Shown: positions 13,747 through 53,203 of the stretch, piece after piece | How positions within the stretch are numbered: the first letter of the stretch is position 1 | Layout: each line of letters starts with the position of its first letter | Assembly: GCF_003334305.1 (NCBI RefSeq) | Contig: NZ_QOWS01000005.1 | DNA from: Escherichia coli | GTDB lineage: Bacteria > Pseudomonadota > Gammaproteobacteria > Enterobacterales > Enterobacteriaceae | Reading direction: 5' to 3' (one strand) | Length of the DNA stretch: 64,000 bases | Made by a program: the position numbers and the translations under genes | The notes under the pieces: model-generated | The model's database searches: none | Told to the model about the DNA's origin: nothing | What the model saw: only the letters and a program-made list of their open reading frames with translations

Positions 13747-14937
13747 CTATTGCGTCTGTTCTTCGAGTGTCACTGGCCAGCGGCGAAATATAATGATTGA
13801 CCAAATTAACGCGGCAAAAGCAGGCACCGCGCCCACATAACCAATCATCGACATTGACCAGTGCAAACTCACCTGATTACCTACCAACGCACCCGCCCCG
13901 ATTCCAATATTAAATATGCCGGAGAATAGCGCCATCGCGACGTCGGTAGCATCTGGTGCCAGCGCCAGCACTTTAACCTGCATACCAAGCCCGATGATCA
14001 TCATCGCGATCCCCCAGAAAATACTCAGCACCCCGAGGTGTATTTCACTGTTCGCCGCAGGTAACAGCAATGCCAGGCACACCAGCAACAGCGCAATCGC
14101 CGTACTCACCAACGCAGACGCATACTGATTACCCAGTTTACCGAAAATCACGCTGCCAATAATGCCCGCACCACCGAGTAATAACAGTAATGCCGTGGCA
14201 AAGTTGGCGCTGAATCCCGCAATGTTTTGTACAAAAGGCTCGATATAGCTGTATGCCGTGTAATGGGCGGTGACAACCACCACAGTTAACAAATAAATGC
14301 TCATCAATGCCGGGCGGCGGAACAATAGCGGGAGGCTTTTCAATGAACCGGAATGCTCACTGGGCAGTAAGGGAAGTAACTTAATCAGGCACAAAAGGGT
14401 GATAAGCGCCCCAATACCAATCGCGAAGAAGGTCATTCGCCAACCGAAATACTGGCCCACAATGCGCCCGAGAGGTAAACCTAAGACCATCGCCAGTGCT
14501 GTACCGGTGGCAATTAAACTCAATGCCTGTGCTCGCTTCCCGGCCGGAGCCATACGGATCGCCAGAGACGCCGTAATCGACCAGAAAATCGCATGTGCAA
14601 AAGCCACACCAATGCGACTGATCACCAGAACGGTAAAGCTCCACGACAAAAACGACAGTACGTGGCTGGCAATAAACACCACAAACAGGCAGATCAGTAA
14701 TTTGCGCCGTTCAACCTGACTGGTCATTAACATAAAAGGCAATGACATTAGCGCTACTACCCATGCGTAAATGGTCAACATGATGCCGACCTGAGCGGTT
14801 TGCATGTGAAAACTTTGCGCAATGTCAGAGAGCAGGCCAACAGGGACAAATTCGGTGGTGTTGAAGATGAAGGCGGCGACTGCCAGCGTAACGACCCGTA
14901 GCCACGCCACTTTGCGGGAAACAGTGTTTGTTGTCAT
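13747..14937 (-). CDS. sotB: MFS sugar efflux transporter SotB/YdeA (396 aa)
   Basis: 12-TM MFS protein; position adjacent to marC. Confidence 0.85.
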
Positions 14938-15086
14938 AACAGATTATCGGGTGAGTTGCGAAAAAGTGATGAAATGATCTTAAAACGGTTAATGATGTGA
15001 ATACAATGCATTTGTGATCTGGATCGCGTTTTCCGTTTCTCTGACGCTGATTCTTTCACGCGTCAGAGAGTCGGTAACATCACGGT

Positions 15087-16202
15087 TTAATGACGTTCAG
15101 GGAGGTCTGGCGTTTTGGAGGTTGCGGGTATAGGTGGTCTGACAGGGGAGCGAGGCCTGTTTTTCACCAGGTCTTCGTGAGTAACTTTTGGCGGCGTTTC
15201 ATTTTTTACAAAAAGTTTGAGGGTCCTGCGCGCCATATGTTTGATAATTTTATCATCACTTAATGATGCTGGCATCAACACGTCATTCAAATCACTTTCA
15301 TTGGGATTCATAAATTGGTGATAGTGCAATAACATATTGGCGAAAAATAAAAACAAGTCCTGAAAATGAGGAGATTCTTGTTCTGCTAAAAGGGATAAAA
15401 AGCAGATGCAGACTTCGGGTAGTACATGTTTGTTAGAACCTAATGAATCCATCAGGCTTTGCAATAAATCCTCTTTTAATTCGCTGTCCGTTATGTCGAG
15501 AATGGCGGTGTTCAAGTTAGGATCTTTATTGACGAACCATCTGTGAACCTCAGAGTTATTCCATAATCGGGGGAGTATGACAAAATTACCGCGAGAGATA
15601 AAATTCAGGACAAGCAAATCAAACTGGCGTAAGTAATCTGCAGCGGTATGGTGATCCGGAGGCAGGGGTTCAATATGTGGTGTATGCGCTCTTTTGATGG
15701 GAGCGCCAGGGTTGATCATCGGAAATTGTTCAATAAAATCATTCAGAAACAGAAAGGGCACACGCTCGACGCCGGTCTGAAATACGCGCCCCATAGTGAC
15801 AGGCTTTGGGTTGGGAGCGCAAAAAATATTAATTTCTCCATCATGGCGAAAATTATCTAAATAAATAGGGCTTAAATTTATTACTACCTGAAATTCAATA
15901 TTTTCTTTGTGTCTTCCATTCTTGACGGGATAAGTGAGTTTAAACTGAACCTTTTCATTGTATAGCGTGTCGTTACCCCGGAAAGAAGTCCTCTGAATAT
16001 ATGATAAGTTATCAAGGTTATTAAATATCTTTTTTGTGGCTGAGTTGATGTTTAAAGACGTGCGCCACTCTTCATCACATATTATGGTACTGAGTGCATC
16101 AATAAAATCCTTTAAAACTTCTTTTACCTGAGGTGCAATATTACGAGCGGGAAAATCATCAGGAAGAGATATATAATTGCTGATGCTTACTGGCGTAACC
16201 AT
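15087..16202 (-). CDS. yneK: Uncharacterised protein YneK (371 aa)
   Basis: Long AT-rich ORF with no recognisable catalytic motif; position between sotB and yneJ. Confidence 0.75.
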   Translation of the reverse strand: MVTPVSISNYISLPDDFPARNIAPQVKEVLKDFIDALSTIICDEEWRTSLNINSATKKIFNNLDNLSYIQRTSFRGNDTLYNEKVQFKLTYPVKNGRHKENIEFQVVINLSPIYLDNFRHDGEINIFCAPNPKPVTMGRVFQTGVERVPFLFLNDFIEQFPMINPGAPIKRAHTPHIEPLPPDHHTAADYLRQFDLLVLNFISRGNFVILPRLWNNSEVHRWFVNKDPNLNTAILDITDSELKEDLLQSLMDSLGSNKHVLPEVCICFLSLLAEQESPHFQDLFLFFANMLLHYHQFMNPNESDLNDVLMPASLSDDKIIKHMARRTLKLFVKNETPPKVTHEDLVKNRPRSPVRPPIPATSKTPDLPERH

Positions 16203-23234: not shown

Positions 23235-23440
23235 TAACACCGTTACTTCTGAACCCGGTTTCGACCGGGTTTCTTATTTCACTATATTAGTTACAACATC
23301 CTATGTGCCTTTATCATTAACAGGTGCCACATGCAGCGCCTGTTAATGTTGTAAGCTTGTAGGTAATTTGTAAGTAGCGTCTTGAGAATGTGATCGTAAT
23401 CACGTTTAATAGGGCGACTTTTCCACGCCTGAAGATAACC

Positions 23441-28416: not shown

Positions 28417-29444
28417 TATGCGGCCTCCCGTTTTTTACCTGACGAAGCGGGTTTAACGGATGGCGGTGGCGTCATAAAGCGGGCATATTTTTGCCGCCGT
28501 AGATTACGTTCCAGCGCACAACGCAGGCGTCCATCAAACACCAGCACCGCCAGCAGCACGAGGCCCGCGATAAAATCGTTCCACCATGCCGGAATGCGCA
28601 ACAGCACCAGTACGCTATCGATCTGCGTCAGGAACCATGCGCCGAGTACCGCACCGATGATCGCACCGGAACCGCCGAGCAAACTAATGCCGCCCAGCAC
28701 GCAGGCTGCAATTGCTTTCATCTCCAGCCCGGTACCGGTCTGGTTGGGGATAAAACCAATCTGCGAAGCAAACACAATTCCCGCCAGTGCCGCCATGCAG
28801 CCGTTCAACGAAAATGCCACAATGCGAATGGCTTCCGTACGAACACCCAGTTGACGAGCGCCCTGTAAATTATCGCCCGTGGCATAAAAACTGCGTCCAA
28901 ACGCCGTCTTTGCCAGCAGCCAGGCCATAAATGCCACCAGAATTATCGTCAACCAACCAATCGCGGAAACGCCAAACAGCAGCGGTGCGGAGAGCTGTTT
29001 CAGTTCGGCGGGTAACCCTTCAATCCATTTACCGCCAGTCCACAGCAACATGATGCCTCTGTACAACCCTAACGTGCCAAGGGTGGCAACAATGGCAGGG
29101 ATCTTTAGCCACGCGACCAGGACACCGTTGAAAAATCCCGCGAGCAAACCAAGCAGTAAAGTCGCGACACAAGCAACAGGTAGTGAATACCCCGCGTTCA
29201 GTAACATCCCCAACAGCACTGCGCACATTCCGGTAATCGAACCCACTGAAACATCAATATTGCGCGTAAGCATTACCAGCGTCGCGCCCATTGCCAGCAG
29301 GATCAGGATTTGCGCGCTGCTATAAACCATGGTCAGCGTTTGCACACTTAAATACTGGCGGTCGAGAAAACCGGGTAATGCAAACAGCAGCACCACCGCC
29401 AGCAGTGCCGTGATTTCACGGTTGTTCTGAATAAACTTCAGCAT
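28416..29444 (-). CDS. lsrC: AI-2 ABC transporter permease LsrC (342 aa)
   Basis: Ribose-type ABC permease; 7-nt overlap with lsrA. Confidence 0.9.
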
Positions 29445-30973
29445 GACACCTCCTGACGCTGACTATCGCCGAAGGCAACGCGCATAATAGTCTCGACATT
29501 AATATCGCGCCCGGTCAGTGCAGAGTGGGCAATTTCGCCCTGATGCATCACATACACGCGATCTGCCATCAGTTCGATCTCTTCCAGATCGGAGGAGATA
29601 AGCAGCACTGCCACATTTTGTGCGGCGATGCTGCGCAACAGCTGGTAGATATCATTACGGGCCGAGACATCCACGCCGCGCGTCGGCTCATCGACAATCA
29701 ATGCTTGCGGCGAAGCTTCCAGGCATTTGGCAATGAGGATTTTTTGCTGGTTGCCACCGGATAATGTCCGTGCAGCTTGTTCCGGTTGGTTAAATTTAAT
29801 ATTCAGCGCCCGACGATAACGTTCCAGGGTGGCATTATCTTTCGCGGTTTTCGCCCAGAATCCACGAAGGTTATGAGTAAGGGCGCAGACGTTCCAGGCA
29901 AGCGAAGCATCGAGATTCAGTCCGGATGACTGGCGATCTTCCGGCAGATAAACCAGACCGCGCAGTAAACGTTCTCCAGTGGATAATTTATTGATCTCTT
30001 TACCATTCAGCATAATGCATCCGCCACGCAAAGTACGCAGACCATAGAGCGTCTCGGCCAGTTCTGTGCGTCCGGCCCCCACCAGCCCAGCCAGGCCCAG
30101 AATTTCTCCGGCATTGAGCGTCATGCTGACATTCCTGAAACCTTCGCCGGTCAGATTTTCCAGTGTCAGCACCGGCGTTCCGGCAGCATGTTGTGGGCGG
30201 TTACCAGGTAACTCCAGCCATAATTTTTGGCTGGCAGAGAGCGATTTTTCCCGTACCACTGGCGTGATGGCCTGAATAATGTCGTCGGTAGACAGTTCGC
30301 TGGTTTTGCCGCTTAAGGCGATGGTTCCGTCGCGCATCACGCTAATTCGATCGGCAATCTGGCGAATTTCCGGCAGCTTATGCGAGATAAAAACAATACC
30401 CACGCCAGTAGCAAGCAGCTCTTGCAAGCGAGTAAACAAGCGTTCGGTTTCCGCAGGGGTAAGCGAGGCGGTAGGTTCATCGAGGATCAGAATCCGCGAG
30501 TCGCGCATTAGCCCGCGGAGGATTTCCACCATTTGGCGATCGGCGACATCCAGCGATCCTGCCAGACTATGCAGATCAAACTGGCAGCCCAGCGCCGCCA
30601 GCAAGTTCTTCATTTTTTGCATGGAGAGCTGTTTTTTTGCCATCCCAAACAGGATGTTTTCTTTTATCGACAGGCTTGGGAAAAGCAGCGGTTCCTGGGG
30701 AACGAGATAAATGCCCAGCTGATGAGCATGAACTGGCGTTAATCTGGCGTAGTTGTTGCCCCCAATCTCCAGCGTACCGCTATCAGCAGGGGTAATACCG
30801 GCAATAATCTTCATTAACGTCGATTTACCGGCACCATTGCCGCCGAGCAGGGCGTGGACCTCCCCCTGATGCAACGTAAAATCGATGCCTTTCAGGACAT
30901 TGACCCCTGAATACTGTTTATAAACCGAGCGGGCGCAAAGTAGCGGTAACGCGCGGGTATCACTCGTTTGCAT
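29438..30973 (-). CDS. lsrA: AI-2 ABC transporter ATP-binding protein LsrA (511 aa)
   Basis: Duplicated ABC ATPase with Walker [10 protein letters not shown] and signature LSGGNQQK. Confidence 0.9.
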
Positions 30974-31004
30974 ATTTCCCCCGTTCAGTTTTGCAGGTGA
31001 GTTT

Positions 31005-31037
31005 TGAACAAATGTATTTCTGCTTTTAATTTGTTCA
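31005..31037. promoter_or_regulatory. 9-bp perfect inverted repeat (tgaacaaat-N15-atttgttca) just upstream of lsrA; candidate LsrR operator
   Basis: Seen directly; lies 32-64 bp upstream of the lsrA start codon. Confidence 0.4.
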
Positions 31038-31137
31038 TAACCTTAGGTGGACATTGCACATATTTCCGACGAATAGATCACAATTTATGCTATTTTGATT
31101 TTCACGGTTGCGTTTGTTCATGCTCGTAGAGTCAAAC

Positions 31138-31153
31138 TGTGGCTGCCATCACA
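31138..31153. promoter_or_regulatory. CRP-like site TGTGG-ctgcca-TCACA in the lsrA/lsrR divergent region
   Basis: Matches TGTGA-N6-TCACA at 9/10 half-site positions; the lsr operon is known to be cAMP-CRP dependent. Confidence 0.5.
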
Positions 31154-31221
31154 GATATAAATGCGCAAGAACTGAACAATTGCATTAAAGATTTAAATAT
31201 GTTCAAAGTGAAGAATGAATT

Positions 31222-32175
31222 ATGACAATCAACGATTCGGCAATTTCAGAACAGGGAATGTGTGAAGAAGAACAGGTCGCGCGGATCGCGTGGTTTTACT
31301 ATCACGACGGGCTGACCCAGAGCGAGATCAGCGATCGTCTCGGCCTGACCCGTTTGAAAGTGTCGCGCTTGCTGGAGAAAGGGCATCAGTCCGGCATTAT
31401 TCGCGTACAGATTAATTCTCGCTTTGAAGGCTGTCTGGAATATGAAACTCAATTACGTCGTCAGTTTTCGCTGCAACATGTCCGGGTGATCCCTGGGCTT
31501 GCGGATGCTGATGTCGGCGGGCGACTGGGGATAGGCGCGGCGCATATGTTGATGAGTTTACTTCAACCACAACAGATGCTGGCGATTGGTTTTGGCGAGG
31601 CAACCATGAATACGCTGCAACGCTTAAGTGGTTTTATTTCGTCACAGCAAATTCGCCTGGTCACGCTCTCCGGTGGCGTCGGTTCTTATATGACGGGTAT
31701 CGGGCAGCTTAACGCGGCGTGCAGTGTGAATATTATTCCGGCTCCGTTGCGGGCATCCTCCGCTGACATTGCCCGTACGCTAAAAAATGAAAATTGCGTC
31801 AAAGATGTTCTGTTAGCCGCGCAAGCAGCCGATGTGGCGATTGTCGGCATTGGGGCCGTCAGTCAACAGGACGACGCGACGATCATTCGCTCCGGTTATA
31901 TCAGCCAGGGCGAACAGTTAATGATTGGTCGAAAAGGGGCGGTTGGCGACATTTTAGGCTACTTTTTTGATGCAAAAGGTGACGTTGTCACGGATATTAA
32001 AATACATAACGAACTGATTGGCTTACCTTTAAGCTCGCTGAAGACCATACCCGTCCGGGTTGGCGTGGCAGGGGGAGAAAATAAAGCCGAAGCAATTGCC
32101 GCTGCAATGAAAGGCGGTTATATCAACGCACTGGTTACCGATCAGGACACAGCAGCGGCGATTTTACGTAGTTAA
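31222..32175 (+). CDS. lsrR: lsr operon repressor LsrR (317 aa, SorC/DeoR family)
   Basis: N-terminal HTH then sugar-phosphate-binding domain; divergent from lsrA. Confidence 0.9.
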
Positions 32176-32253: not shown

Positions 32254-33846
32254 ATGGCTCGACTCTTTACCCCTTCAGAATCAAAGTATTACCTGATGGC
32301 GCTGGATGCAGGTACCGGAAGTATTCGGGCTGTGATATTCGACCTGGAAGGCAATCAAATAGCAGTGGGACAGGCGGAGTGGCGGCACCTGGCAGTACCG
32401 GACGTTCCTGGTTCTATGGAATTTGATCTCAACAAAAACTGGCAACTGGCGTGTGAGTGTATGCGCCAGGCGCTGCACAACGCCGGCATAGCCCCGGAGT
32501 ATATCGCTGCCGTTTCGGCATGTTCGATGCGTGAAGGCATTGTTTTATATAATAATGAAGGAGCCCCGATCTGGGCCTGCGCCAATGTGGATGCCAGAGC
32601 GGCACGCGAAGTTAGCGAACTTAAAGAACTGCACAACAATACCTTTGAAAACGAAGTTTATCGCGCGACCGGACAAACACTGGCTTTAAGTGCCATCCCC
32701 AGATTACTTTGGCTGGCGCACCATCGTTCCGATATTTACCGTCAGGCATCAACCATCACCATGATCAGCGACTGGCTGGCCTATATGCTCAGCGGCGAAC
32801 TGGCGGTGGATCCCTCTAACGCTGGCACCACGGGACTTCTTGATCTAACCACCCGTGACTGGAAACCTGCATTGCTGGATATGGCTGGCCTGCGTGCCGA
32901 TATTCTTTCTCCTGTCAAAGAAACCGGCACATTGCTGGGCGTGGTAAGTTCACAAGCGGCGGAACTCTGCGGTCTGAAGGCGGGCACTCCGGTGGTCGTT
33001 GGAGGAGGCGACGTGCAGCTTGGTTGCCTTGGGTTAGGCGTTGTGCGTCCGGCACAAACCGCGGTTCTTGGCGGCACATTCTGGCAGCAAGTTGTAAATT
33101 TAGCCGCGCCGGTGACAGACCCAGAAATGAACGTGCGCGTTAATCCTCATGTTATTCCTGGCATGGTACAAGCTGAATCTATAAGCTTTTTTACCGGACT
33201 CACCATGCGCTGGTTCCGCGATGCTTTCTGTGCCGAAGAAAAACTGATTGCCGAACGTTTAGGCATCGACACCTATACGCTGCTGGAAGAGATGGCCAGT
33301 CGGGTGCCGCCTGGGTCGTGGGGCGTAATGCCGATCTTCTCCGACAGAATGCGCTTTAAAACCTGGTATCACGCTGCGCCTTCCTTTATTAACTTGTCCA
33401 TTGAGCCGGATAAATGTAACAAAGCGACATTGTTCCGTGCGCTGGAAGAAAATGCGGCGATTGTATCAGCGTGTAACTTGCAGCAAATTGCTGATTTCTC
33501 GAATATTCATCCTTCATCGTTAGTCTTTGCAGGCGGAGGTTCAAAAGGGAAATTATGGAGTCAAATTCTCGCTGATGTCTCGGGATTACCCGTCAATATT
33601 CCGGTGGTCAAAGAAGCCACTGCATTAGGATGTGCCATTGCAGCTGGCGTCGGTGCCGGAATTTTTTCATCAATGGCAGAAACCGGAGAACGCCTGGTTC
33701 GCTGGGAACGGACGCACACACCAGACCCGGAAAAGCATGAACTTTATCAGGATTCACGCGATAAGTGGCAGGCAGTTTATCAGGATCAGCTGGGGCTGGT
33801 TGATCATGGACTGACGACGTCGTTATGGAAAGCGCCTGGGTTATAG
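32254..33846 (+). CDS. lsrK: Autoinducer-2 kinase LsrK (530 aa, FGGY kinase family)
   Basis: FGGY carbohydrate kinase motifs ([15 protein letters not shown]). Confidence 0.9.
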
Positions 33847-52883: not shown

Positions 52884-53203
52884 GGCGATATATTTATTGA
52901 AATAAATAAGTGACATCCATCACATATTTATGCACTTGCATAACCTGTTGCATGATTATTTATGATCTCAATTCGGCATTTTGTCAGTAAAATGCAATAA
53001 TTTATTAAATATCAATAAATTAGTTGTTTATCGGCGAGAAATTACTTAATAGAACAGAAAGTAATGTCAACGCTTTATGGACTGTTATTTCCCTTTTTTT
53101 AGCTAAATCTGCTATCTCTTTATGTGACTAACTTCACTTACATCCACTTATTTCTCTTCGTAAAATTACTTCGGAATTAAGTACAATAAGAAGAGGAACA
53201 TTT

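Follow-up and report, generated by a model that had tools for sequence, protein, structure and literature searches.

The stretch of Escherichia coli DNA analyzed here (64,000 nucleotides, hereafter the window) contains a 248-bp interval, positions 30974-31221, that is exactly the gap between an ORF at 29438-30973 on the minus strand and an ORF at 31222-32175 on the plus strand. The gap is 100% identical to the corresponding DNA of many E. coli chromosomes and was found in 4179 of 5426 complete genomes. In one strain with an identical gap, E. coli E2865, RefSeq has lsrF-lsrB-lsrD-lsrC-lsrA at one flank and lsrR-lsrK at the opposite flank, and the 317-residue product of the plus-strand frame matches the crystallised LsrR protein (PDB 4L5I/4GO1) with an E value of 1e-202. 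The names lsrA and lsrR, given by the original prediction, are thus upheld both by the annotation of identical DNA and by the match to the LsrR structures. The annotation of E. coli E2865 gives lsrK as frameshifted (7281-8871 of locus L001) and the methyltransferase gene that follows lsrF as partial (61-555), and it lists no lsrG; the lsrK ORF of the window (32254-33846, 530 residues) is intact. The genes and the elements considered in the gap are as follows.

29438-30973, minus strand: lsrA, encoding the AI-2 ABC transporter ATPase (511-residue ORF), first gene of lsrACDBF(G).
31005-31037, no strand: op1, a 33-bp palindrome, TGAACAAAT-N15-ATTTGTTCA; candidate LsrR operator, spanning the start region predicted for the lsrA promoter.
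31067-31082, minus strand: probable CRPI, TGTGATCTATTCGTCG, with one strong half-site, centre 31074.5; the CRP site nearer lsrA.
31088-31120, no strand: opM, a degenerate middle copy of the palindrome, 83 bp from op1 and 85 bp from op2.
31138-31153, no strand: probable CRPII, TGTGG-CTGCCA-TCACA, centre 31145.5; the CRP site nearer lsrR.
31173-31205, no strand: op2, the second palindrome, TGAACAATTGCATTAAAGATTTAAATATGTTCA; predicted LsrR operator over the lsrR promoter, containing the published p-lsrR-box.
31222-32175, plus strand: lsrR, encoding a SorC-family repressor (317-residue ORF), with lsrK following at 32254-33846.

The original prediction had singled out two of these elements, a perfect 9-bp inverted repeat with a 15-nt spacer at 31005-31037 and a CRP-like TGTGG-N6-TCACA at 31138-31153, and the DNA reads exactly so in both cases. 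The left arm of the repeat, TGAACAAAT, occupies 31005-31013 and its exact reverse complement, ATTTGTTCA, occupies 31029-31037, with 15 nt between them; in a repeat search the arms reach 13 nt at 92% (31001-31013 and 31029-31041). When TGAACA-N21-TGTTCA was searched for with at most one mismatch, only two matches were found in 64 kb, against 0.18 expected, and both lie in the lsrA/lsrR gap. An operator matrix trained on non-Escherichia operators only gave 33.9 bits for op2 and 32.5 bits for op1, the best score elsewhere in the 64 kb being 4.3. This rarity, together with the conservation of the arms across genera described below, indicates that op1 is more than a chance repeat. It lies in the control region between lsrA and lsrR and its motif is common to op2 and to the orthologous loci; from these features of the sequence we infer that op1 is an LsrR operator. 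No description of a palindromic LsrR operator was met in the accessible LsrR literature, and a full-text literature search with the literal site sequences gave nothing relevant.

The second palindrome, op2, is 76% identical to op1 over 33 nt and lies 168 bp from it. Between the two is opM, of which only the right arm, TTTGTTCA, survives in E. coli, where the operator matrix gives it -4.1 bits and rank 18 of 63,968. In every genus with a gap of the type of about 248 bp, a copy with 1-3 mismatches stands at op1+83, 83-85 bp before op2. It is near-intact, with one mismatch in the twelve outer positions, in Salmonella (TGAATAAATGAATTTTTATATGATAAATGTTCA, positions 2370-2402 of locus L028), Serratia sp. 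H1w and Edwardsiella, whereas Kluyvera and Superficieibacter have weaker copies with 2 mismatches and Citrobacter has copies with 2-3; the GTTCA of its right arm (31116-31120) is invariant or nearly so in the alignments. Accessible papers on lsr control held no mention of a middle palindrome. The earlier picture of the gap is therefore incomplete, having missed op2, the degenerate middle copy and the lsrA-proximal CRP site.

The CRP-like site at 31138-31153 reads TGTGGCTGCCATCACA, a 9/10 match to the CRP core TGTGA-N6-TCACA. Allowing one mismatch, this core has 5 matches in 64 kb versus 2.2 expected, so that the pattern alone is only mildly unusual. The same arithmetic (about 2 one-mismatch matches per 64 kb by chance) is what would favor reading TGTGG-N6-TCACA as a fortuitous resemblance, with CRP acting through the lsrA-proximal site alone. 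Against this, the half-sites are conserved and the spacer free to vary across ten genera, and it is this conservation, with the placement in a 248-bp gap, that makes the site significant. A symmetrised, approximate CRP matrix, built from classical sites, scores 31135-31156 at 11.8 bits, rank 4 of 63,979, in agreement with the CRP assignment. Two CRP boxes, CRPII and CRPI, lie between the LsrR boxes in PMC5137460, and a 2026 preprint (bioRxiv 10.64898/2026.06.09.730415) reports 0-3 conserved CRP sites in the lsrA/lsrR gap across Enterobacteriaceae, activation by CRP of both lsrACDBFG and lsrR, and a requirement for CRP in lsr expression. We therefore regard the chance reading as highly improbable. 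A CRP site in the lsr regulatory region is a familiar matter; Wang et al. are said to have first mapped one in 2005.

The second-best CRP-matrix match in the gap is the CRPI region (31064-31085; 4.5 bits, rank 102), which has a single good half-site, and the GATCAC of that half is invariant in 14 aligned sequences. CRPI is 6 bp from TGTGCAAT, a sequence that PMC5137460 describes as "very close to CRPI", and the legend to Figure 2 of that paper gives the order p-lsrR-boxes, CRPII, CRPI, p-lsrA-boxes. This order and this closeness fit a reading in which 31138-31153 is probably its CRPII and 31067-31082 its CRPI. The CRP-like site of the original prediction would most likely serve lsrR rather than the lsrA promoter. 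The strong half of CRPI also contains a GATC (Dam methylation) at 31076-31079, which is the sole GATC in the gap and invariant in the aligned genera; its invariance may simply reflect the CRP consensus.

Conservation was assessed with a single LsrR scan of species-representative genomes, which yielded 25 loci, all with a divergent lsrA, from Escherichia, Citrobacter, Kluyvera, Superficieibacter, a Serratia sp., Izhakiella, Edwardsiella, Mangrovibacter and Buttiauxella; copies from Salmonella, Klebsiella and Enterobacter were taken from a plasmid collection. The gap varies little in length, measuring 248-251 bp in most genera, and conservation is concentrated in discrete blocks of the alignments. 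Counted over ten genera, the invariant columns are distributed as follows.

op1 arms: 16/18 columns.
op1 spacer: 2/15 columns.
op2 arms: 16/18 columns.
CRPII, TGTGG and TCACA halves: 7/10 columns.
CRPII spacer: 0/6 columns.
GATCACA of CRPI, 31076-31082: 6/7 columns.
Whole gap: 31% of columns.

Each of the 25 related loci carries the palindrome at the corresponding position, with none elsewhere in its approximately 7 kb, and the copies from Salmonella, Klebsiella and Enterobacter have it as well. The sole indel among the gaps of the long type falls between opM and CRPII, which means that the spacings from CRPI to op1 and from CRPII to op2 are fixed. A shorter type of gap was found in Klebsiella, Enterobacter and Buttiauxella (L029 2249-2448, L030 2302-2497 and L022 2802-2997); here op1 is perfect and the op2 counterpart is CGAACA-N21-AGTTCA, weakened at its outermost bases, at 163-167 bp, or at 285 bp in Buttiauxella sp. 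A111. No middle copy was found in the short gaps examined from Klebsiella, Enterobacter and Buttiauxella. The weakened lsrR-side operator and the lack of a middle element suggest that the lsr switch has a second architecture, represented by the short gap. Upstream of a Sinorhizobium meliloti homologue (44% identity), no TGAACA-N17..27-TGTTCA was found at up to 2 mismatches, and the motif is accordingly traced within the Enterobacterales only.

LsrR belongs to the SorC/DeoR subfamily, and the palindromes resemble the operator of a related repressor, Bacillus subtilis DeoR. That operator, ATTGAACAAAATTTCAATTACCAATTTACATATGTTCAA, has two half-operators, on which two dimers bind as a tetramer (PMC11229326). 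The left arm of op1 and the right arm of op2 recur in it as the outer arms TTGAACAAA and ATATGTTCAA, in the same inverted orientation; both systems have an A/T-rich interior with weaker inner half-sites, and in both the repressor is a dimer-of-dimers tetramer. In the LsrR operators the inner half-sites are weakly conserved (G10, T13, T14). The DNA-binding domains align as well (LsrR 21-69 with DeoR 16-64), with the motif R-x-x-V-S-R-L-L common to both, and both arginines of the motif match the DeoR base contacts R34/R39 (PMC11229326), assuming a 5-residue numbering offset in chain 8R7Y. The two systems differ in that TGAACA and TGTTCA are separated by 24 bp for DeoR and by 21 bp for LsrR, in that DeoR uses one operator overlapping the -35 whereas the divergent lsr region has two or three, 83-85 bp apart, and in the effector, which is deoxyribose-5-phosphate for DeoR and phospho-AI-2 for LsrR. 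By analogy, this likeness supports the view that each 33-bp palindrome would be a full operator for one LsrR tetramer.

We also compared the palindromes with the LsrR boxes described for the E. coli lsr region, which is the same locus with identical sequence and whose order of LsrR box, CRPII, CRPI and LsrR box is reproduced here. The p-lsrR-box is placed at -237 to -197 from the lsrA start codon and consists of AACAAT and AAGATTTAA, parted by TAATGCA at -214 to -208 (PMC5137460); it is reported to be required for LsrR binding (PMC5137460, PMC8487509). These coordinates map to 31170-31210, and the parts of the box fall inside op2 (AACAAT at 31175-31180, TAATGCA at 31181-31187 and AAGATTTAA at 31188-31196). 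On the lsrA side, the published element is the following.

30984-31005, minus strand: p-lsrA-box motifs, AAAACT (31005 to 31000) and AAAACTGAA (30992 to 30984) (PMC8487509).

Here the published motif adjoins the conserved palindrome rather than equalling op1: it shares 1 nt with op1, or 5 nt with the extended arm, and is not inside 31005-31037. The general reading of the original prediction, an LsrR operator with a CRP site, is in keeping with the published map, while its placement of LsrR on the inverted repeat lies outside the published lsrA-side coordinates, and these do not confirm the assignment of op1, since the box only adjoins the repeat. The accessible papers give A/T-rich "boxes", without the TGAACA-N21-TGTTCA palindrome or a middle element. 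The lsrA-side motifs are quoted by the group that reportedly made the original LsrR footprints (Xue et al., 2009).

It could thus be argued that the p-lsrA-box is the real LsrR site at the lsrA promoter and that the inverted repeat binds another factor or is a structural relic. According to PMC8487509, LsrR needs the boxes AAAACT and AAAACTGAA to bind the lsrA promoter, and they map right beside the repeat. However, they lie in the least conserved part of the gap, with 1/6 and 1/9 invariant columns respectively, versus 16/18 for the arms of the inverted repeat. Moreover, the repeat has a paralogue in op2, the palindrome that carries the validated p-lsrR-box, and it agrees with the operator bound by DeoR, a related repressor. 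A substitution of AAAACT would, in addition, remove the initial base of TGAACA together with the adjacent extended arm, so the published mutant is compatible with op1 as the site. On this evidence we consider it unlikely that the box, rather than op1, is where LsrR binds.

A different kind of explanation is that the inverted repeat works at the RNA level, as a hairpin in the lsrA leader that influences mRNA stability, translation or attenuation, and not as a DNA operator. The minus-strand RNA does fold to a hairpin of 9+4 bp at -9.3 kcal/mol (z = -2.6), and only 3 of 200 shuffled sequences fold as well. Nevertheless, the loop of 15 nt is long and A/U-rich, the hairpin has no T-run or terminator-like site in the scan of 30900-31300, and an Rfam search gave no match for it at E values up to 1. 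The same palindrome recurs near lsrR and mid-gap, at other positions and orientations for which no common RNA role is evident; because both arms are invariant, the hairpin has no compensatory change; and if transcription starts near 31033, as proposed below, its 5′ arm would be truncated. An RNA role for the repeat thus seems very doubtful.

Candidate promoter elements were placed from geometry and conservation, and are listed here with the site of published mutations discussed at the end.

31040-31045, minus strand: predicted lsrA -10, TAAGGT (31045 to 31040); its first, second and sixth bases (T, A, T) do not vary among genera.
31053-31060, minus strand: TGTGCAAT, site of published promoter-up mutations and proposed CytR site (PMC5137460).
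31175-31180, plus strand: predicted lsrR -10, AACAAT, inside op2.

With the lsrA -10 at TAAGGT, transcription would start near 31033, CRPI would be centred at about -41.5 and op1 would cover about -4 to +28. With the lsrR -10 at AACAAT, the start would be near 31187, with CRPII at about -41.5 and op2 at about -14 to +19. AACAAT is invariant across genera, but as part of the left arm of op2. Both promoter positions, and with them the -41.5 geometry of the CRP sites, are predictions from the sequence; no transcription starts for lsrA or lsrR were met in the literature. A scan of 30900-31300 for sigma-70 and terminator patterns returned no sites; the missing sigma-70 match is expected for activator-dependent promoters, yet it lends no support. 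An alternative lsrA -10, ACAAAT in the right arm of op1, was rejected, because CRPI would then lie at about -51.5, not one of the standard positions for activation. The predicted arrangement resembles that of class II CRP promoters such as galP1, in which CRP is at -41.5: the lsr promoters have a TGTGA-N6-TCACA-like site just upstream of a weak -10 and no recognisable -35, and their expression is reported to be CRP-dependent. It differs from them in that the -41.5 position in lsr is itself predicted and in that CRPI has a single good half-site.

Taken together, these observations lead us to read the gap, with a probability of roughly three in four, as a divergent control region for AI-2 uptake in which op1 and op2 are LsrR operators, CRPI and CRPII are class II activator sites and opM lies between them. 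In this model the two TGAACA-N21-TGTTCA palindromes would serve as operators of LsrR, a repressor of the SorC/DeoR type, and one tetramer (two dimers) would probably occupy each of them, as on the B. subtilis DeoR operator, a stoichiometry drawn from that analogy. As op1 and op2 lie over the predicted promoter start regions, bound LsrR would exclude RNA polymerase, and phospho-AI-2 would release LsrR from the operators. cAMP-CRP would act from CRPII on lsrR and from CRPI on lsrA, in each case centred about 41.5 bp upstream of the predicted start. Positioned between the CRP sites, about 8 helical turns from each outer operator, opM may aid cooperative assembly or looping. A more far-reaching version of the model is that three helically phased 33-bp palindromes of the DeoR type (op1, a decaying opM and op2), bracketing both CRP sites, are the true LsrR operators, that LsrR tetramers form a cooperative or looped complex over both promoters, and that the published lsrA-side box is mis-assigned; we offer this version tentatively, and think it less probable than not by a clear distance. 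The three-palindrome architecture was not met in accessible papers and may exist in curated regulon databases or primary papers.

Both elements singled out by the original prediction are genuine, conserved sites of regulation in a well-known system, for which control of both promoters by LsrR and CRP is established in the literature, and the outcome is a refined view of that regulation and no new system. The newer part, a palindromic DeoR-like operator model with a phased middle site, is a minor refinement that is absent from the accessible papers. The lsr switch governs uptake of the AI-2 quorum signal, and synthetic biology makes wide use of it. From a correct operator map, which includes TGAACA-N21-TGTTCA palindromes, two CRP sites and a phased middle site, one can see what bases may be altered for tuning while control by LsrR and CRP is kept, and such a map would explain the poor transfer of the published "box" motifs to other promoters.

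Two further observations were made. The promoter-up mutations TGTGCAAT to TGTACAAT and TGTGCAAT to TGTGTAAT were attributed to a CytR site (PMC5137460). Both turn TGCAAT (31058 to 31053) into a better -10, either TACAAT or TGTAAT, each a 5/6 match to TATAAT, and a -35-like GTGATC (31081 to 31076) lies exactly 17 bp upstream of TGCAAT. Judged from the sequence, the better -10 in both mutants and the -35-like hexamer at 17 bp would make creation or improvement of a promoter a simpler explanation than lost CytR binding. Finally, the best CRP-matrix match in the whole window is ATTTGTGATCTGGATCGCGTTT at 15010-15031 (18.0 bits). It lies between the minus-strand ORFs 13747-14937 and 15087-16202, whose counterparts in E. 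coli E2865 are ydeA, for an L-arabinose MFS transporter, and yneK, and so is just upstream of ydeA; further strong matches are at 52906-52927 and 23386-23407.
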